Assembly (NCBI GenBank): GCA_965649295.1
Contig: CBFGKH010000006.1
Span: 64,001 to 128,000, forward strand
Length of the DNA: 64,000 bases
Source: a candidate division WOR-3 bacterium
GTDB taxonomy: Bacteria > Hydrothermota > Tepidihabitantia > Tepidihabitantales > Tepidihabitantaceae
Reading direction: 5' to 3'
The position numbers were made by a program, and so were the translations under genes. How positions within the stretch are numbered: the first letter of the stretch is position 1; each line of letters opens with the position of its first letter. This document shows, piece by piece, positions 6,583 through 17,005 of the stretch. The notes under the pieces were generated by a model. It made no database searches, had not been told where the DNA came from, and saw nothing but the letters and a program-made list of their open reading frames with translations.

Positions 6583-6610
6583 TTGACCCCTGCCCGGGCA
6601 GGGCTAGAAT
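6583..6610 (+). promoter_or_regulatory. sigma70-type promoter 7 nt before ATG 6618 (probably leaderless)
   Basis: TTGACC-N16-TAGAAT-N7-ATG. Confidence 0.55.
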
Positions 6611-6617
6611 GAGGTTT

Positions 6618-8030
6618 ATGAGAAACTGTCTGCTACTCCTGCTCGTGCTGCTGCCGCTACCGGCAACTGCCCGACTCCAGGTCGGACAGACCGCACCAAA
6701 CTTCACCCTGCCCGACACGGCCTGGGTGAACCATCAACTTGTCGAGTTCCGCGGCCAGGTAGTACTGCTCAACTTCTGGGCCTCGACCTGAGGGACCTGC
6801 CGCGCGGAGTTGCCGCGCCTCTCCATCCTTCAGAACGACTACGGCCCCCACGGCTTCGCCGCCATCTCCATCAACCTCAACGAAGATATGATGAACGTTG
6901 TCCGGGTCTATGCCCGGCAGAACTCACACCTCTTTCTCCGCGACCCTGGCACAGTCTGGAGTGTTTACGCCCAGAACAACTATATCCCTTTGAACTACGT
7001 TCTTGATACTGCCGGCGTAATCCGCTATTGGGAGGAGGGCTTCGACGAAGCCGCCCTGGTGAGCGTGATTCGCCAATACCTGCCTGACCCGATTGACCAC
7101 GATGTTGGGGTGTTGCGTGTCATTGCACCCAGCGGCACGTTCGATTCTGGTGCAGTTGCTGTCCCGGCCTGCTCGGTTTACAACTACGGCGACCGGGTTG
7201 AGAACTATCCGGTACGGCTACAGATTGGCAGTCGTTATGACACGACCGTGCTAGTCACTAACCACCTGCCAGCAACCGGCCGCCGCGTCGAGTTTCCTGC
7301 CTGGACCGCACTCGAACGCGGCCAGCTCACCGTAGCCGCAACAGCCGAACTTGTCGGCGACGACATCGGCAGTAACAATACCGCGACCGGACTGACCATC
7401 GTGAATGTCCGCGACTTTGCCCTGACAGCGATTTTCGCACCACAGGACACGGTTGACTCAGGGACTACTGTCGTTCCCCTAGTCGAAGTACGCAACCTCG
7501 GAACGGTTGCCGATATGGGCCGGGTACGACTGACCATCGGCAGCGACTACGTTGACAGCGTCAATGTACCCCTGCAGCCAGGCCGCTGGGACACGGTTGC
7601 GCTACGAACTTGGACCGCCGGCGCAACTGGAGTCCTGCCCCTGCGCTGCACGCTAATCACCCGGCTTGCTGATATGAACCCCGCCAATAATCTGCTTGAA
7701 CGTACGGTCGTTGTGCTCGGCCTGGGAGTGGCCGAAGAATCCAAGACTATGCTAGAACCGTTCCGTCTAGAGCCAGCCACAAATCCGGCAGCAGGCCACG
7801 TGCTATTTGCCATCACACTACCCAACCCTCAGTATGTGGAAGCAACTCTCTTCGCGGCGAACGGAACACTAATCCGGCGGCTGTGGTCTGGTCCACTGCC
7901 AGCAGGCCAGCACAAACTTCGCTGGGACTGCCGGGACGAAGCCGGCAACAGAGTCGTCCCTGGCCGGTATTTCTGCTGCGCAGTAGTCGGCGACAGAACA
8001 AGGAATACTGGCGTTACAACCACCAGGTAA
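6618..8030 (+). CDS. Predicted selenoprotein: signal peptide + TlpA-like thioredoxin (UxxC) + two CARDB-like domains + FlgD-Ig/T9SS-like C-terminal domain
   Basis: Track ORFs 6609..6791 and 6810..8030 are in one frame; TGA 6789-6791 reads LLNFWAST-U-GTC-RAELP, the position of the first Cys of the TlpA WCxxC motif; SECIS-like hairpin follows. Confidence 0.88.
6789..6832 (+). promoter_or_regulatory. Bacterial SECIS-like element
   Basis: Stem GCGCGG 6802-6807 / CCGCGC 6813-6818, loop AGTTG starting 16 nt after the UGA; lower stem TGAGGGA 6789-6795 / TCCTTCA 6826-6832 (one G-U). Confidence 0.78.
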
Positions 8031-8385: not shown

Positions 8386-9354
8386 ATGAACCGCAACAAA
8401 CCGCTAGTGCTCGCAGCGGTTGCGCTGCTGATGGCGTTCTTCGCTGTCGGCTGCGACAGGCTGTGGAACGATCAGCCTGGCAAGACCAATGCAGCGTGGC
8501 ACTGGGTACCTGGTGGGCCGGCATATGTTGATTGGATGATGTCAGGAAGCTCAATCATCGGTCAGGTCAAAATTGAGCGGCCGACAGGTCCGCAACTCAA
8601 TGCCGGGTTCCAGATGTTCGGTACCCGGAAGATGACCAAGACCCATGTCCACGTCGCGACTTCGGCAATCGGCATTCCCTCCAACGTGAATAACTGGCAG
8701 TACAAGGTGACGCACAACCCGGCTAAGACCCAGTACACGCAGCCAGTCGCCTGGCAGTCGGCCTGGGACGGAGCCAACAAGCTGTACGTCGGCATGTACG
8801 CCCAGTTCACCGGTGGCGGGGACTGCAGCACGTGGAAGCAGATCTACACTTGGACGGTCACCATCCCGTACAAGGACGTTGACCTGCCCTACCACATCGT
8901 CACCTTCTTCGGCCAGCACCCGAACGGAACCTACAGCTACTGGAAGTTCAAGTTCAGTGGCATCGGGCCCGGATATGACGTTGTGGACGGTCAGTGGTAT
9001 GCTGGCTGGTGCATGGAGCAAACTCACTACATGAACCAGAACCAGAACTACCTGGCGGTACTCTGGTCAACGCTTGAGGCCCGTCTGCCCATCCGTCTGC
9101 AGAATGCCGGCTGGGACAATGTCAACTACCTGCTCAACAACAAGCATCCGAACGCGACGCTCTGGGACATCCAGGCCGCAATCTGGTACCTGCTGGGCAA
9201 CGGTGGCTATCCGTCGGACCCTGAGGCTCAGGCAATGGTGGCAGACGCCCTTGCCAACGGCGACGGGTTCAAGCCTTCGGGCGGTCAGTTGCTCGCGGTT
9301 GCTCTCGAACCGATCTGCGAACGGCAGGTAGTGTTCATTGAGCTCGATCCGTGA
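8386..9354 (+). CDS. Lipoprotein with putative Cys-Gln thioester domain (paralogue 1)
   Basis: AAGGAGG RBS; lipobox FAVG-C; GWCMEQ, DIQAAIWYL and terminal RQVVFIE motifs. Confidence 0.72.
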   Translation: MNRNKPLVLAAVALLMAFFAVGCDRLWNDQPGKTNAAWHWVPGGPAYVDWMMSGSSIIGQVKIERPTGPQLNAGFQMFGTRKMTKTHVHVATSAIGIPSNVNNWQYKVTHNPAKTQYTQPVAWQSAWDGANKLYVGMYAQFTGGGDCSTWKQIYTWTVTIPYKDVDLPYHIVTFFGQHPNGTYSYWKFKFSGIGPGYDVVDGQWYAGWCMEQTHYMNQNQNYLAVLWSTLEARLPIRLQNAGWDNVNYLLNNKHPNATLWDIQAAIWYLLGNGGYPSDPEAQAMVADALANGDGFKPSGGQLLAVALEPICERQVVFIELDP

Positions 9355-9414: not shown

Positions 9415-9575
9415 GCCGGCGGTTCATATGTGCTGCCGGCGGCCCCCCCCATTACTCCGGCACCGACAATCCCATTCGACCAGGCTGTGCTGAACCACCA
9501 ACGGTGACCAGCTTGACCCTGACTGACCCACAAACTAGCATATACTGTCTGTTCCTACGCAATCCAGGAGGACCC

Positions 9576-12173
9576 TTGAGTCGTTTCGTTCTATTACTCT
9601 GCGTCGGAATCACCTTGGCGCTAGCTGGTGAGTTCCTTGGCCTTGTGCCTGCTGCCCGGCCAGATGAAATTGCCGGCAACTACCGTGTGGTTGGTCAGAC
9701 TGCCAATGGCGTACTCGTCATCGGCAACACCGCTAGTGAGAGAGATTTTGCCAACCGCGCCGGCCGCTACCTTGCCGTTGACCTAAAGGAGCACGAGTTC
9801 TATCGTGTCCGGTTGATTGAACCGGCGGCACGACCTGCCCTCGCCGCGGTCAGTCGCATTCTCGACTTCGATGGCAACGAGTATCTCGTCCAAATCAGGC
9901 CAAGCGAGGTCGAGAAGCTGATGAACCTGCCGGCTGAGCTTGCTCGCCTCAATCTCCGCGGCTGGGTCTTTACCGACAAACATCCGCAACTGCCTCGCGT
10001 TCTCGCCAATCCGCTCATCGAGCAGCTAGTTGCGAGCGTCAATCCCGATTCAGTGCTGGCCGTTGTCCGGCGCTTGCAGAACTACCGCAACCGCTACTCG
10101 ACCGGCGACTCCTGCCGCGCTGCTGCCCAGTGGATCAAGACGAAACTGAACGCCTACGGCTGCGACACGGTGATTCTTGAAAACCATACATCCGGTCATG
10201 CGCCCAACGTCATCGGCATCAAATATGGCACCCGTGGCCAACGCAACCCCTATGCGATTGTCTGCGGCCACTTTGACTCCTATGCTGCAACTAACGCGCC
10301 CGGTGCCGACGACAATGCCTCCGGCACTGCCGCCGTGATTGAAGCAGCCCGGGTGACGCAGGGCTACCGGTTCACCAACGACCTCCGCTTCATTGCCTTC
10401 TCCGGTGAGGAGTTCGGTCTCTACGGTAGCGACTACTACGCGACCCAGGCCCGCAACCGCGGGGACTCGATTCTCGGCGTAATCAACTTCGACATGATTG
10501 GTTACGTTGACGCTGCGCCGGAGTATCTTGACCTCGTGACCAAGATTGCCAACCCGCCCTGCGGCCCGTTCTCGGCCTGGTTCACGGCGGTTGCCGACAC
10601 CTATACCACTCTGCGCTGCTCAACGCAGATGGTTAGTGACAACCAGAACTCGGACCACGGCCCGTTCTGGAGCAACGGCTACGTCGCCTTCTGCGGCATC
10701 GAAGACTTCTGGCCGACCAACCCCCACTATCACACGAGCCACGACTCAATCGGCGCCGGTTACAACAACAACGCTTTCTGCACCGAGGTCACCAGGTCCG
10801 GCGTCGCCGCGCTTGCCACACTCGGGCAGCCGGTGCCACTAAACCAGCCGCTTGTCGGTATCCGCTCCACCCGCGTTGACGACGCGGCTGGCAACAACAA
10901 CAACCGCTGGGATGCCGGCGAAAGCGTTGCCGTCTATGTCATCCTCCGAAACTTCGGCATGGTTCCCGCCACCAATGTCAGCGCCACTGTCAGCACCAGC
11001 GACCCCTATGTGACGCTCTACAGCACGACCGCCGCTTACGGCACCATCAACGGCCTCGACACCGCTCTTCCGCAGGCTCCGTTGACGATGCGTGCCGCTC
11101 CGACTACGCCCCGCGAGCACGAAGCAAGCTTCACGCTCAATATCACTGCTGCCGAGACAACCTGGGTCACCAGCTTTGTCCTGCGCATCGGCGAGTATCT
11201 TGTCACCGACCCGATACCTGATGGCCCCCGCCAGCCGCCGCTCTACTGGGCCTACGATAACATTGACACTGCCTATCCACCGCATCCGACTTACAACTGG
11301 GTCGAGATTCGCTCGCAGGGCACTCGCCTCAGCTTTCCTCAGAATGATAACGTCGTGCTGGTCAACCTGCCAGCCGGTTTTGGGCCGATAAAGTTCTACG
11401 GCAACCGCTACACTCAGATATCGGTTTCTGCTGATGGCTGGATTGCGATGGGCAACTACACCACCAGCAACTACTCCAACACCGGCCTGCCCAATACTGC
11501 TGCGCCGCGGGCTGCGGTCTTTGCCAACTGGGACGACCTCTACCCTGAATACGGCGGTTCCGGTTACATCTACTGGTATCATGACGCCGCTAACCACCGG
11601 CTGATTGTCGAATATGACTCGGTTGCCTATTACAATCCGACTTCGGTTCGTGACAAGTTCCAGGTGATATTCTACGACACCACCCTGGCCTCACCTGACG
11701 GCAACAACGTCATCGTTGTCCAGTATAAGACCGCCAACCGCTTATCCAGTTCAACCACTGGCATTCAGGACCAAACTCAGACCATCGGCATCCAGAACCT
11801 CTACAACGGCAGCTACAGTCGCGGCGCGGCCACGATTGTCCCGGGCTCGGCCGTAAAGTATGTCACCGACGCACCAGTCGGACTGGCTGAAATACCACCC
11901 AGTCGGCCGCTCGCCGAACCGGCGCTGACCATTGGCCGGCACCCGCTACTTGGTCCCACGCGTATCGCCTTTCTACTGCCAACCGAGGGCCAGCTTGAGC
12001 TAGCGCTGTTCGACCAGTCCGGTCGCCGGGTCAGTCTGCTTGCCACCGGCCGTTACAGCTCTGGCTGGCACTCGCTTGAGTTCGACCCTACTGGTCTCCG
12101 GGCCGGAGTCTATTTCCTGCGCCTGACTGCGGCCGGCCTGAATAGAACCGTCAAGGCTGTTATCGCCCAGTAG
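9576..12173 (+). CDS. M28 family Zn aminopeptidase with Ig-like domains and C-terminal sorting domain
   Basis: GHFDS, PGADDNASG, FSGEEFGLYGS, INFDMIG, SDHGPF, HYHT; C-terminus AGVYFLRL..KAVIAQ; TTG start at 9576 after AGGAGG. Confidence 0.9.
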   Translation: MSRFVLLLCVGITLALAGEFLGLVPAARPDEIAGNYRVVGQTANGVLVIGNTASERDFANRAGRYLAVDLKEHEFYRVRLIEPAARPALAAVSRILDFDGNEYLVQIRPSEVEKLMNLPAELARLNLRGWVFTDKHPQLPRVLANPLIEQLVASVNPDSVLAVVRRLQNYRNRYSTGDSCRAAAQWIKTKLNAYGCDTVILENHTSGHAPNVIGIKYGTRGQRNPYAIVCGHFDSYAATNAPGADDNASGTAAVIEAARVTQGYRFTNDLRFIAFSGEEFGLYGSDYYATQARNRGDSILGVINFDMIGYVDAAPEYLDLVTKIANPPCGPFSAWFTAVADTYTTLRCSTQMVSDNQNSDHGPFWSNGYVAFCGIEDFWPTNPHYHTSHDSIGAGYNNNAFCTEVTRSGVAALATLGQPVPLNQPLVGIRSTRVDDAAGNNNNRWDAGESVAVYVILRNFGMVPATNVSATVSTSDPYVTLYSTTAAYGTINGLDTALPQAPLTMRAAPTTPREHEASFTLNITAAETTWVTSFVLRIGEYLVTDPIPDGPRQPPLYWAYDNIDTAYPPHPTYNWVEIRSQGTRLSFPQNDNVVLVNLPAGFGPIKFYGNRYTQISVSADGWIAMGNYTTSNYSNTGLPNTAAPRAAVFANWDDLYPEYGGSGYIYWYHDAANHRLIVEYDSVAYYNPTSVRDKFQVIFYDTTLASPDGNNVIVVQYKTANRLSSSTTGIQDQTQTIGIQNLYNGSYSRGAATIVPGSAVKYVTDAPVGLAEIPPSRPLAEPALTIGRHPLLGPTRIAFLLPTEGQLELALFDQSGRRVSLLATGRYSSGWHSLEFDPTGLRAGVYFLRLTAAGLNRTVKAVIAQ

Positions 12174-12238: not shown

Positions 12239-14065
12239 CTAGCGGACGAGCACGAGCTTGTGGATCTCGTTCGCCGAACTCGTATTGAGCTTCACGAAGT
12301 ACATGCCCGCGTTCAATCCGTCGAGCGAGACCTGCACATCGCGGCCGCAGAGCTCGACCGACTTGACGATATTGCCCGCGAGGTCATAAACCTGAGCCGA
12401 GCCCTTGCCGAGCCTGGCTGACAGATCAATGACGTTCTTCGTGTAGGGTGTCGGCAGCGAAAGCCGCGGACTGGCAACCTCGGGCCGGCGACCTTCGTTC
12501 ACGCCGAGATACGGCGGATAGTAGAACAGCACCGACACGTTCGCAGCCGGAACGTGGTTGGCCGGCGCACCGTTGTAGCAATACTGATGGAACCAGTTCG
12601 AGGCACCAGTCAGGCCCTGGATACCAATCGTGTTCGAGTTAGTCGTGGCCGGGACTGCCTGATAGTTGAAGCGAATCCGGCCTTGATTATCAATGATGCA
12701 CTGGGCCGTCAGCGTACCCGTGCCCGAGTAGGGCGGAACATTGACGAACGCGAAGACCGTGTAGTCATTGGTCGGGCTGTTGTACTGATAGACCGTCCCG
12801 CCCGCGCCCGGGTTCATATCGTCCCAGTAGAAGGCAATCATGTTCGGGATTGACGCCTGCGGAAGGGTGGCATTCGTATAGGTCGTAGCTGTACCAGTCT
12901 CAAGGAACCCGTTGGTGCAGATGTTGATACCATTCAGGTTCTGCCCGTAGTAGGGGAAAGTGAACGGCAGAGTGCGAACGCTGTAACCGTCGTCACTCGA
13001 ACCAGTCCAAGTCGTAATCGGCGTACCCGCGGTCGGGTCAATCCAGTTGTAGGTGACCGTGTCGCCTTCCTGAGTTGACTCGTAGATGTAGCCGAACCCA
13101 TCTGGGTCTGAGCCACGGCGGCAGATTGCCCGCGCCGTGCGAACGTCATTCGCCGGATTCTCGTCACCGACCAGCGCGGTCGAGATGGTCGTAATCAGTA
13201 CGTCGCCGACGTCGGGTACAGTCGAGCCGATGTTAATGCGGGCGGTGGCATTCGGCGCCAGGCCAGTAATTGTCGTATCGCCCTCGAACAGGTTTACGCC
13301 CGCGAGCGAGTCAAGCACCTCGTAGTGCACATCAAACGTCTCGGTGTTGGTCCCATAGTTCTTGACCATACCCTCAAACACCGCGGTCTCACCAACCCGG
13401 ATACGACCAGACGGGCTGACCGACAGTACGCCGACGTCATGCGCCAAGCTCTGGGTCGTGATGATTGCCCGGATATTCCAGTTGTAGTTCAGGCCATAGT
13501 CAGCAAGCTGTGACCACGCGCCCTGGAAGTAGATCCAGCCACCGCGGGTCGGCACCATCGGCCCAGCATCAACGCCGAGCGGATAGACACCCGCCGCGTG
13601 GGTCATTCGCGGACCAAGCCAGAAATCTTCATTGGCGTTCATCGGAATCGGCGCGGCAAAGTTAACCCGCTTCCAGACCGAATCGCCCGCACCCGGGTAA
13701 TTGGCTGAGTCAAGCAGCGGCCCCGGCTGGGAAGTCGACCCTGCGCCCCAAACGAAAGCCTTCTCATTGCTCGAAGCCTGATACTGGAAGAACAGCAGGG
13801 CAACAAGCTGACAGTTCTCGGTCGGAGTGAATCGGACTGCACCGGTGTAGGTACCGCCGGCAGTCAGACCGATGGCATCAGCGTTCGGGCCGTCATAGTG
13901 CAACGTCTCCTCGTCGTCAACGCCGCCCCAGGTCGGCTCGAGAATCATCTCGCGCGGGCCAAGATTGGCCTTGGCGAATACCGCCAGGTCGGCCGAGGCC
14001 TTGGCAAACACCGGCACGGCAAATGCCAGCAGCAAGGCCGCCATTACGATCACGTGTCTCTTCAC
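12239..14065 (-). CDS. Secreted protein with CARDB-like and beta-sandwich domains and C-terminal sorting domain
   Basis: GTG start after AAGGAG; signal peptide; HDVGVLSV..GDENPAND; GSDPDGFGY..LPFTFPYYG..AFYWDD domain also present in the M28 protein; AGMYFVKL..KLVLVR. Confidence 0.8.
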   Translation of the reverse strand: MKRHVIVMAALLLAFAVPVFAKASADLAVFAKANLGPREMILEPTWGGVDDEETLHYDGPNADAIGLTAGGTYTGAVRFTPTENCQLVALLFFQYQASSNEKAFVWGAGSTSQPGPLLDSANYPGAGDSVWKRVNFAAPIPMNANEDFWLGPRMTHAAGVYPLGVDAGPMVPTRGGWIYFQGAWSQLADYGLNYNWNIRAIITTQSLAHDVGVLSVSPSGRIRVGETAVFEGMVKNYGTNTETFDVHYEVLDSLAGVNLFEGDTTITGLAPNATARINIGSTVPDVGDVLITTISTALVGDENPANDVRTARAICRRGSDPDGFGYIYESTQEGDTVTYNWIDPTAGTPITTWTGSSDDGYSVRTLPFTFPYYGQNLNGINICTNGFLETGTATTYTNATLPQASIPNMIAFYWDDMNPGAGGTVYQYNSPTNDYTVFAFVNVPPYSGTGTLTAQCIIDNQGRIRFNYQAVPATTNSNTIGIQGLTGASNWFHQYCYNGAPANHVPAANVSVLFYYPPYLGVNEGRRPEVASPRLSLPTPYTKNVIDLSARLGKGSAQVYDLAGNIVKSVELCGRDVQVSLDGLNAGMYFVKLNTSSANEIHKLVLVR

Positions 14066-15652: not shown

Positions 15653-17005
15653 TCAGTCCTCGCCGACCGCCCGTCGTATTGACCGCTCCAACCGCGCCCG
15701 CAGATTGGGCGTGAAACCGGCATGGATGTCGCTGATTCTTCCCTTGCGATCAACCACCACCACTGTCGGAAAACCGGTAACGCCATACTTCCGGTACGTC
15801 TCGCCGCAGAGTAGGTTGAGATACGAAAGCCTGAGCTTCTCGACCACGAATCGAGCATCAGCCACATCCTTGTCCGTGTTCATCCCGATAACCGTCACCG
15901 CCCTTGCCGGATACTCCCGGGCCAGCGAGTCGAGCACCGGCATCGCCCGAATACACCACGGACAGGCCCGATACCAGAAGTCGAGCAGCAGCACCCGGCC
16001 CCGGAAGTCCTTCAGTCGCCGCACCCGACCATCGAGGTCTGGTAAGGTCCAAGCCGGTGCCGGTTGGCCGATAAGTTCAAGCCGAGACCTGGTCTGGGCC
16101 AAAAGCTCTGGCACCGACTGCTGATGTCTAGCCTGCTCCTCACGCAACAACCCGACAACTGCCGAATCACTCACCCTTGCCATTGCCCTAACCAAGACGC
16201 TCTCGGCCTTGTTCCAGACAACCGACAACGTGTCGTGGTGCTCAAGCGCCGCGTCGGTAATGCTGTCATACTCCCGCTTTGCCGCAAAGAACCGACCCAG
16301 GTCCGCCACCAACGTTCGGAGTCGGTCTGCCTCGAAACTCCCGACCGAGTCAAGTACCGCAACCGAAGTCTGCCGACTCTCACCCAGCCCAGCATCGCTG
16401 CGCGCCTGACTCTCCCGCCGCACCACAAGACCCTGCCGAGTATTGAACAGCACCTCGGCAGTTGAACGAATCCCATAAACGCTATCCAGCGGCGATGAGT
16501 TCTCCATCCGGAACAGCCAGATGCTGTCGCGCAGGTTCTTGTTCTCCAACTTGACAAAACTTGCCTCTTTCAGGCTCGTATCGGTCACGATCAGCCAGCC
16601 ACGCTTGGCCCGTACCGTGTCCGGCGGCAGCGGCGGGAACAGTGACTGCGGGTCAGCATCACCGGCCTCCTGCAGTTTTCTCACTTCGCGGTCTAGCTCG
16701 AACAACGCCCAGCTCACCTTTCCCGGCAGCTCAGTGCGCGTTCCATCCGGTTTGGTCTGATAGCCCTTATCCTCAGCCCGACCAACCAGTTGCCAGACCG
16801 GAAAACCGGCAACCGAATCAATCCGACCGACAACGTAGAACTCCCATTGTCGCGTTCTTCGGCGCGACCCTTGGCCGAAGTGCGACTCGCTCGTCACCGT
16901 GTAGCAGAGCTTCTTCCCCGGTGCCAACTGATAGGACGGCATCACAAATTCGGCTGCCACCACTCCACTGGCGAGCAGAATCATCAACCATCGTCCTGTC
17001 ACCAT
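15653..17005 (-). CDS. Exported protein with C-terminal TlpA-like disulfide reductase domain
   Basis: Signal peptide; GQPAPAWTLPDLDG..LLDFWYRACPWCIRAMP..YGVTGFPT; GAGGAG RBS. Confidence 0.88.
   Translation of the reverse strand: MVTGRWLMILLASGVVAAEFVMPSYQLAPGKKLCYTVTSESHFGQGSRRRTRQWEFYVVGRIDSVAGFPVWQLVGRAEDKGYQTKPDGTRTELPGKVSWALFELDREVRKLQEAGDADPQSLFPPLPPDTVRAKRGWLIVTDTSLKEASFVKLENKNLRDSIWLFRMENSSPLDSVYGIRSTAEVLFNTRQGLVVRRESQARSDAGLGESRQTSVAVLDSVGSFEADRLRTLVADLGRFFAAKREYDSITDAALEHHDTLSVVWNKAESVLVRAMARVSDSAVVGLLREEQARHQQSVPELLAQTRSRLELIGQPAPAWTLPDLDGRVRRLKDFRGRVLLLDFWYRACPWCIRAMPVLDSLAREYPARAVTVIGMNTDKDVADARFVVEKLRLSYLNLLCGETYRKYGVTGFPTVVVVDRKGRISDIHAGFTPNLRARLERSIRRAVGED

Follow-up and report, generated by a model that had tools for sequence, protein, structure and literature searches.

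Does the in-frame TGA near the front of a predicted secreted protein gene end that gene, or does it encode the selenocysteine (Sec) of a redox enzyme, and in the latter case where, and on what, would the enzyme act? The question is raised by the frame at 6618..8030 (+ strand) of a 64,000-nucleotide (nt) stretch of contig CBFGKH010000006.1 (assembly GCA_965649295.1; referred to as the window, with coordinates given as window positions). The source genome, here G000, is 2.28 Mb in size and 100% complete, and homologues of the gene carry WOR-3 names. We report that the TGA almost certainly encodes Sec, as judged from comparison of sequences. By analogy with characterised relatives, the best reading of the product is a surface thiol-disulfide reductase/isomerase of the TlpA/ResA type in which Sec would be the attacking residue, a reading that we hold with about even confidence.

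The initial annotation had taken two listed open reading frames (ORFs) for one frame broken by a single TGA, and frame and translation bear this out: 6618..8030 is a single frame of 470 codons, terminated by TAA, in which the TGA at 6789-6791 is the only internal stop. Read as Sec, it gives NFWAST-U58-GT-C61-RAE64-LP within a product of 470 residues, and full-length orthologues with 49-60% identity are present in 21 of 36 genomes of the same family. The Sec machinery, which had been put forward as a check, is complete in G000, with selA, selB, two selD genes and tRNA-Sec all scoring above cut-off; selA was matched in 57 of 61 genomes. Each of the two selD genes has a TGA of its own (C1:318451-319377 and C1:355394-356299) and one of them adjoins selB, while the tRNA-Sec gene is located directly behind the best-scoring porV (C5:87265-88399).

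The codon itself is conserved. In the 21 full-length orthologues it is TGA in 19 and TGC in two, and overall it aligns with TGC in three genomes (G014, G022 and G013) and with Cys in the database proteins P0003-P0005 and P0009. A domain search of 272 genomes of the phylum gave 87 matches in 53 genomes (40 of the 43 genomes within the family), 75 of which hold a TGA. The remaining 12 comprise three Cys family members, four Asp/Ser variants, one partial match and four weak matches, two of which were inspected and are ordinary TlpAs. Hence, as had been asked of the homologues, the majority carry TGA and a minority Cys at the same codon, with the hairpin described below kept as well, and the TGA is retained at this Cys-aligned position among proteins that are 49-68% identical.

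A bacterial selenocysteine insertion sequence (SECIS) upper stem-loop is located at 6802..6818 (+; GCGCGG-AGTTG-CCGCGC). Exactly as the initial annotation had it, 6802-6807 pairs with 6813-6818 (six G-C pairs) around the loop AGTTG (6808-6812), 16 nt past the UGA. The bacterial SECIS model, as set out in the available text of PMC13188914, has a loop of 3-9 nt, a stem of 4-16 bp, a G in loop position 1-2, a distance of 16-37 nt from the UGA and an energy of ≤ -7.5 kcal/mol; the present hairpin fits it with a 5-nt AGUUG loop, 6 bp, 16 nt and -10.5 kcal/mol. The second stem, proposed to include the UGA, does form in the minimum-energy fold of this copy (6789..6832, +; 6789-6795 paired with 6826-6832), but it is not conserved: among 24 TGA copies 47% of its cells are paired compared to 100% for the upper stem, and it was therefore rejected as a part of the conserved SECIS.

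Because the folding energy is mixed (z of -0.71, -3.33, -0.62 and -3.41 in four windows) and equally strong hairpins occur elsewhere in the genome, behind 182 of 10,801 sampled TGA triplets (1.7%) and behind six of the 294 long coding frames that terminate in TGA, it is conservation and not energy that decides for the hairpin. Specifically, codons +5 to +8 are fixed as GCG GAG TTR CCG in 24/24 TGA copies, where the genomic usage of these codons within their amino acids is 0.24, 0.63, 0.14 and 0.49, respectively; the copies are related and do not constitute 24 independent trials. When the set is widened to 43 TGA copies, all six pairs are kept in 35 and a shifted hairpin is found in six. Compensatory changes affect three positions of the stem (G-C to U-A in five of the 24 copies, C-G to A-U in L124 and L125, and G-C to U-A in L171), and in the three Cys copies the stem is intact in one and reduced to five and three of six pairs in the other two. 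Taken together, the Sec machinery, the conserved Cys-aligned TGA and the covarying hairpin argue strongly for Sec at position 58. In four distant copies (L169, L170, L178 and L179, family f39) the hairpin lies approximately 6 nt further downstream, and some copies of this distant type have the Sec-TlpA domain within longer proteins.

Assembled reads are consistent with these data. Four contigs from four runs and two studies, representing related strains, span 6700-6920 with 2, 2, 3 and 3 differences; in the first two every difference is outside the TGA and the hairpin, and each of the other two has one difference without a listed position. The check on reads thus turned out in favour of the TGA region, which is retained in both studies. 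As anticipated, standard annotation splits the gene: of 81 homologues in the databases, 70 have their start placed at residues 59-75, immediately past the TGA, so that the entries mostly represent only the rear part of the gene. This corrects the annotation of the homologues, since entries that start past the TGA miss both signal peptide and active site.

What kind of enzyme would carry this Sec? In the AlphaFold2 model (mean pLDDT 90.8) four domains follow an 18-residue leader. The leader is a predicted cleavable signal peptide (6618..6671, +; residues 1-18, ending PATA), identified by inspection and a crude hydropathy score, and the alignment shows similar hydrophobic leaders in the orthologues. 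The first domain (6672..7088, +) is a TlpA/ResA-type thioredoxin domain with U58-G-T-C61, Glu64 and, at the cis-Pro position, Pro124. It matches Pfam Redoxin with 53.4 bits (cut-off 26.6), AhpC-TSA is above cut-off too, and the fold of residues 19-157 matches DsbE (3gl3, Z 21.4, rmsd 1.5) and ResA (2f9s, Z 21.3, rmsd 1.6) over 134-135 residues; sequence searches agree with this ResA/DsbE/TlpA assignment. C61 and E64, the Glu at +3 past the second Cys, are present in 24/24 TGA copies, and P124 is invariant. The corresponding ResA residue, Glu80, is conserved in many reductive extracytoplasmic oxidoreductases according to the available text of PMC2665060. By domain the protein belongs to the TlpA-like UxxC selenoproteins, and it stays below the cut-offs of the NCBIfam orthologue models (ResA 55/170, TlpA 43.5/230, DsbE 36/123 and StoA 25/210 bits) as well as those of all named Sec-redoxin families: NF041054 (WAxxUGC_long) gave 40 of the required 300 bits, and NF053656 (redoxin_TUGYCR) had no match in this protein and at most 22 of the required 100 bits in homologues.

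The two CARDB-like domains that had been proposed hold at the level of fold. They are Ig-like repeats at 7098..7409 (+; residues ~161-264), all-beta in the model and alignable with the second, and at 7410..7721 (+; residues ~265-368), for which CARDB 3idu is the best match (Z 13.5-14.3, rmsd 1.8-2.4, 103-107 residues). Pfam CARDB (PF07705) has no match in this copy up to E 0.1, and the homologue P0065 has one on record. Repeats of this type, a frequent building block of the secreted proteins of the genome, are present in 116 copies on 37 frames, 30 of which also have the C-terminal tail, and a Cys pair in repeat 1 is conserved across most orthologues.

Behind a low-confidence linker follows a C-terminal sorting domain (7755..8027, +) that resembles type A of type IX secretion systems (T9SS) and matches Pfam FlgD_ig with 30.7 bits (cut-off 27). 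Here too the proposed assignment stands at fold level: the PorZ C-terminal domain (5m11, residues 684-776) matches with Z 9.5 and rmsd 2.7 over 86 residues, the sole listed row confined to the tail; among Ig-like sandwiches a Z of about 9 counts as modest. PorU (6za2, residues 940-1157) superposes on repeat 2 plus the tail. Foldseek with whole models gave mostly unspecific multi-Ig matches, and a PDB sequence search with the middle domains and the tail gave FlgD, for the tail, as the only match. Among tail homologues, L036, L058 and L060 exceed the TIGR04183 cut-off of 23 (26.5, 30.6 and 25.0 bits, respectively), and L050 has no match. Many relatives are short forms in which the signal peptide is followed by Sec-TlpA and the tail without anything else; enzyme and tail thus go together, and the CARDB pair can be dispensed with. 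One further frame, in G219:C84, has the domain match within a length similar to that of the 176-residue relative L055 considered below.

A Cys-type TlpA elsewhere in the window (15653-17005; C-terminal domain of a 450-residue protein with an unassigned N-terminal part) had been suggested as an internal comparator. This did not survive: it has no sorting tail, is at most 33% identical to any row and falls, on a long branch, among ordinary TlpAs, and it adds nothing to the case.

Several components support a route to the surface. SprA is present in G000 with 445.8 bits (cut-off 200) and is above cut-off also in 37 of 41 genomes, and six PorV proteins are above cut-off in G000. There are also two PorU-like C25 proteins, which cover nearly the whole model and have the same FlgD_ig tail, one of them adjoining a porV. 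With an iterative profile the tail was detected on 146 frames of G000, 142 of which have at least two Cys. We consider export to the periplasm very probable and T9SS-type delivery to the cell surface, for which the protein is a likely rather than proven cargo, probable.

Comparison with known systems suggests a protein that would work like a ResA/TlpA reductase and be delivered like HBP35 of P. gingivalis. The solved relatives, Bacillus ResA/StoA, Bradyrhizobium TlpA and CcmG/DsbE (2f9s, 3erw, 1jfu, 1kng and 3gl3), share the fold, the position of the CxxC, the Glu at +3 and the Pro at the cis-Pro position. They are Cys enzymes at the inner membrane, fed by CcdA/DsbD, whereas the present protein combines predicted Sec with a leader that is predicted to be cleaved, Ig stalks and a sorting tail, and it does not follow cytochrome c assembly genes. 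HBP35 has a signal peptide, a thioredoxin motif and a C-terminal domain, is exported by the T9SS with loss of the tail and attached to the surface, and has thioredoxin activity (PMC2907840 and PMC3120885, available text). With these three shared elements it serves as the functional template for the export step; it differs in its CxxC, in binding hemin and in coming from Bacteroidota with a full T9SS, whereas here there are Sec, a TlpA/ResA domain, no Omp28 and a motor that was unmatched in a search for GldM only. We take HBP35 to be Omp28-related; the Omp28 domain models PF11551, NF033782 and NF045500 have no match in the present protein.

Table 1 of the 2026 review PMC13188914 catalogues UxxC TlpA-like, Redoxin, Prx-like and Omp28-related selenoproteins. 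Those of the UxxC TlpA-like kind share domain family, UxxC and a UGA with coding-region SECIS with the gene described here, and no entry in that table is named with a T9SS tail or CARDB domains. Secreted and fused selenoproteins are reported in PMC2398784, with no T9SS tail named in the available part of that paper. The Omp28-related selenoprotein (NF045500; GOS_C of PMC2398784, available text) is likewise a predicted exported UxxC protein of thioredoxin fold, from another thioredoxin subfamily; distant NF045500 relatives with tails exist in G000 (C6:52278, 46.9 of the required 200 bits). Two Marinimicrobia/KSB1 proteins of 260-280 residues, TFB10879.1 and MBD3288930.1 ('redoxin domain-containing protein'), have the same core of signal peptide, TlpA and tail, but with CxxC instead of Sec and without the CARDB pair. 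A literature search, largely without coverage of subscription journals, found no account of a T9SS-exported selenoprotein or of a T9SS in WOR-3. The initial view that the architecture is uncharacterised thus stands for the combination, which was not found in print, and falls for the parts; the novelty is smaller than claimed, because UxxC TlpA/Redoxin proteins are catalogued, a T9SS-exported Cys thioredoxin is known and cores in Cys form exist. What is joined here, in an uncultured lineage outside the Bacteroidota, is Sec enzymes and type IX-like surface display, a link not found in the literature searched.

On this basis the following mechanism can be proposed. SelB would bind the hairpin and insert Sec58, both machinery and hairpin having been found, and the signal peptide would carry the chain to the periplasm. 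There, PorV/SprA would recognise the C-terminal domain and a PorU-like sortase would cut it, with the CARDB pair as surface stalk; the genes and folds are present, and export and anchoring are modelled on HBP35 and other T9SS cargo. At the surface the Sec58 selenolate would attack disulfide or Se-S bonds of neighbouring surface proteins and Cys61 resolve the mixed bond, as the chemistry of the family suggests, so that a Cys-rich, Sec-containing surface layer might be kept reduced or properly paired. The enzyme would thereby serve the Cys-rich cargo and perhaps further secreted selenoproteins. The weakest step is recharge, which would probably proceed via small outside reductants (sulfide, thiols) rather than a fixed membrane partner. 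We place a reductase/isomerase role toward surface proteins slightly above an even chance. The gene thereby raises the question of how a thioredoxin beyond the outer membrane is recharged, and whether Sec frees it from a membrane donor.

A number of points weigh against this proposal. Sec58, the enzyme activity and the surface location are predictions from sequence and model. The two PorU-like proteins score below cut-off (369.5 and 340.4 versus 420 bits), and the GldM/PorM motor had no match in a profile search that was limited to GldM and whose positive control was blank too. The tail of this copy is matched by neither TIGR04183 nor PF18962 and closes with TGVTTTR instead of the KL-V/I-x-x-R-like strand that terminates most tails, and the relative L055 (G029:C59) has TGA, hairpin and a lipobox-like leader but neither CARDB nor tail. 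Moreover, inner-membrane CcdA would be out of reach for a surface enzyme, and no electron donor turned up. Across 21 loci no gene neighbours are conserved beyond pairs, and none outside the genus, which gives no indication of partner or substrate; because of this, and of a possible promoter of its own (see below), the function is deduced from domain and distribution. Finally, D or S replaces U in four of the 87 domain matches and in P0022, and given these copies the redox motif is dispensable in some family members. These Asp/Ser paralogues of the Sec-TlpA (L175, L176, L177, L170 and P0022; DxxC, DxxS or SxxC) are often in tandem with a Sec copy, and some retain the hairpin.

How does the proposed reductase/isomerase compare with its rivals? 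The protein might be a surface antioxidant, with the same Sec and export but mainly reducing small oxidants (peroxide, polysulfide, oxidised selenium or methionine via a partner) when the cell meets oxygen or sulfur, as Etrx1/2 do, which we regard as unlikely. Sec enzymes resist over-oxidation, and both Etrx2 (4hqz, Z 18.1; among the sequence as well as the fold matches) and peroxiredoxin folds (AhpE, Z 17.9) match. The pneumococcal surface thioredoxins Etrx protect against H2O2 (PMC3914529, available text). However, they are fed by CcdA across one membrane, out of reach for a T9SS surface protein; the motif here is UxxC with a ResA-type Glu and not the peroxiredoxin PxxxTxxU, ResA/DsbE outscore the peroxiredoxins, and no Msr gene is among the conserved neighbours. 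Alternatively, the protein could act in the opposite direction, as an oxidative folding catalyst that makes disulfide and Se-S bonds in secreted cargo and replaces DsbA/DsbB, a pair apparently missing from these bacteria. The absence of matches to DsbB and to VKOR in 41/41 genomes (with controls matched in 6/14 and 3/14, respectively), the Cys-rich cargo and the Cys pair in CARDB repeat 1 would all suit such a catalyst. Yet the 127 cargo passengers examined have no excess of even Cys numbers (54 even, 69 odd, 4 none; p = 0.21), fold and Glu64 belong to a reducing subfamily and no re-oxidant is known, and we thus find an oxidase improbable. The 41 genomes lack both DsbB and VKOR matches despite their Cys-rich secreted proteins.

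We likewise assign a low probability to a periplasmic, CcdA-fed ResA/CcmG-type reductase, acting for example in cytochrome c maturation, with the tail as a passive Ig domain that never reaches the surface. Its nearest solved relatives would indeed be ResA/DsbE/TlpA, G000 codes for a single CcdA and a single cytochrome c assembly protein, and the canonical motor went unmatched in the GldM search with its blank control. But 12 of the 22 carriers in G001-G024 have no match to the assembly protein, which makes a role in cytochrome c maturation unlikely on present sequence data, and no frame of at least 150 residues has more than one CxxCH. A fixed CcdA partner also appears doubtful, because six of the 22 carriers (one genome being 63% complete) have no CcdA match and the G000 copy is in an arsenic-related cluster; moreover, the tail is similar to the C-terminal domain of PorZ and recurs in the PorU-like proteins. 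That sole CcdA-like gene of G000 (C7:105494-106120, L167) has an ArsM-like methyltransferase on one side and an ArsP permease/DGC cluster on the other. A surface protein that captures haem or metal (Hg, As, Cu) with its selenol, with redox secondary, is very unlikely. HBP35 binds hemin (PMC2907840, available text) and the persistence of D/S paralogues beside Sec copies suits a non-catalytic role for some, but the present protein has no Omp28/HBP35 domain and the resolving Cys is there in 24/24 TGA copies. Furthermore, according to the available text on HBP35, its truncated 27-kDa form binds hemin too, hence nothing about this domain can be read from that property. The alternatives that the TGA is a Trp codon, arose by sequencing error or truly ends the frame, in a pseudogene or a split gene, can practically be dismissed. 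The split database entries and a TTG start downstream of it, at 6810, would favour a stop; the TGA is nevertheless conserved at a Cys-aligned position with a covarying hairpin and kept in related strains, and in the downstream piece both active site and signal peptide are missing and the fold of that part is poor. A general reading of TGA as Trp is contradicted by its use as terminator in 294 long coding frames and by the sole tRNA-Trp, which reads CCA.

With respect to the Cys forms, four long Cys rows constitute one clade among the Sec rows (support 99/95) and a short Cys row stands apart. Two independent Sec-to-Cys changes do not follow from this, as a single clade of all five Cys rows is allowed (p-AU 0.063, WIN15653 left out). 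The suggestion that Cys copies arise where the Sec machinery has been lost holds in part only: G013 has no selA or selB match, in G022 selB and tRNA-Sec were matched but selA was not, and G014 has selA, selB and tRNA-Sec. The natural Sec and Cys orthologues, ~55% identical, represent a ready comparison pair.

Upstream of the gene a promoter-like site is located at 6583..6610 (+; TTGACC-16 nt-TAGAAT). Its end is separated from the ATG by 7 nt, and two such sites were observed in 2 kb compared to 0.5 expected. The gene may accordingly have its own promoter, and since the start has no clear Shine-Dalgarno sequence its mRNA could possibly be leaderless, a weak suggestion. The neighbour at 8386-9354 is a lipoprotein-like ORF of 322 residues that matches neither Pfam nor NCBIfam, and T9SS tails are present on an M28 peptidase and another protein (9504-12173 and 12239-14065).

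While the enzyme class is familiar, the larger prize is the secreted selenoprotein candidates of the same genome. Nine of the 146 tail-bearing frames in G000 (picked by eye) start right past an in-frame TGA with the leader only upstream, and there are two further candidates; about ten secreted genes show this pattern, and in two such families that were checked the TGA is widely kept. One of these, C2:196218(-), C3:253096(-) and C9:82600(+) (loci L075-L077 and L082-L111), is secreted and has an N-terminal domain without Pfam/NCBIfam match, an invariant Cys (xCWP), an in-frame TGA, a hairpin of the GGCGAA/GGTC/TTCGCC type and then the tail. It was matched in 53 of 61 genomes, with the TGA in every one of the 32 alignments inspected that extend to this position, and was without match in G013 and G039, both of which are without selA and selB matches. 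The other, C8:61248(+) (L079, L196-L207), is secreted and combines GWYRC-U-GDNC with a short tail; one TGA is present in each of its 17 close matches, which come from 16 of 61 genomes, and in none of eight distant ones, and a hairpin comes after it in the 11 loci listed. Tentatively, and with a probability that we consider small, these genes could constitute a selenium redox layer outside the outer membrane. It would comprise some ten Sec-containing T9SS-type cargo proteins per genome, several in folds without a catalogued selenoprotein, with the Sec-TlpA as the reductase by which their Se-S bonds are formed and broken and which is recharged by environmental sulfide, without DsbB, VKOR or an obligatory CcdA.

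Three Omp28-like UxxC genes, C6:45606, C6:52278 and C6:53492 (+; L081), adjoin a Cys TlpA and a DUF6029 barrel; one is lipoprotein-like without tail, two have the tail, and the two that were scanned match NF045500 weakly. Finally, genes with signal peptide, TGA and tail are also found at C2:225931(+), C4:55670(+) and C3:127190(-), with FEASG-U-GT, HRGC-U and PYCGG-U, respectively.

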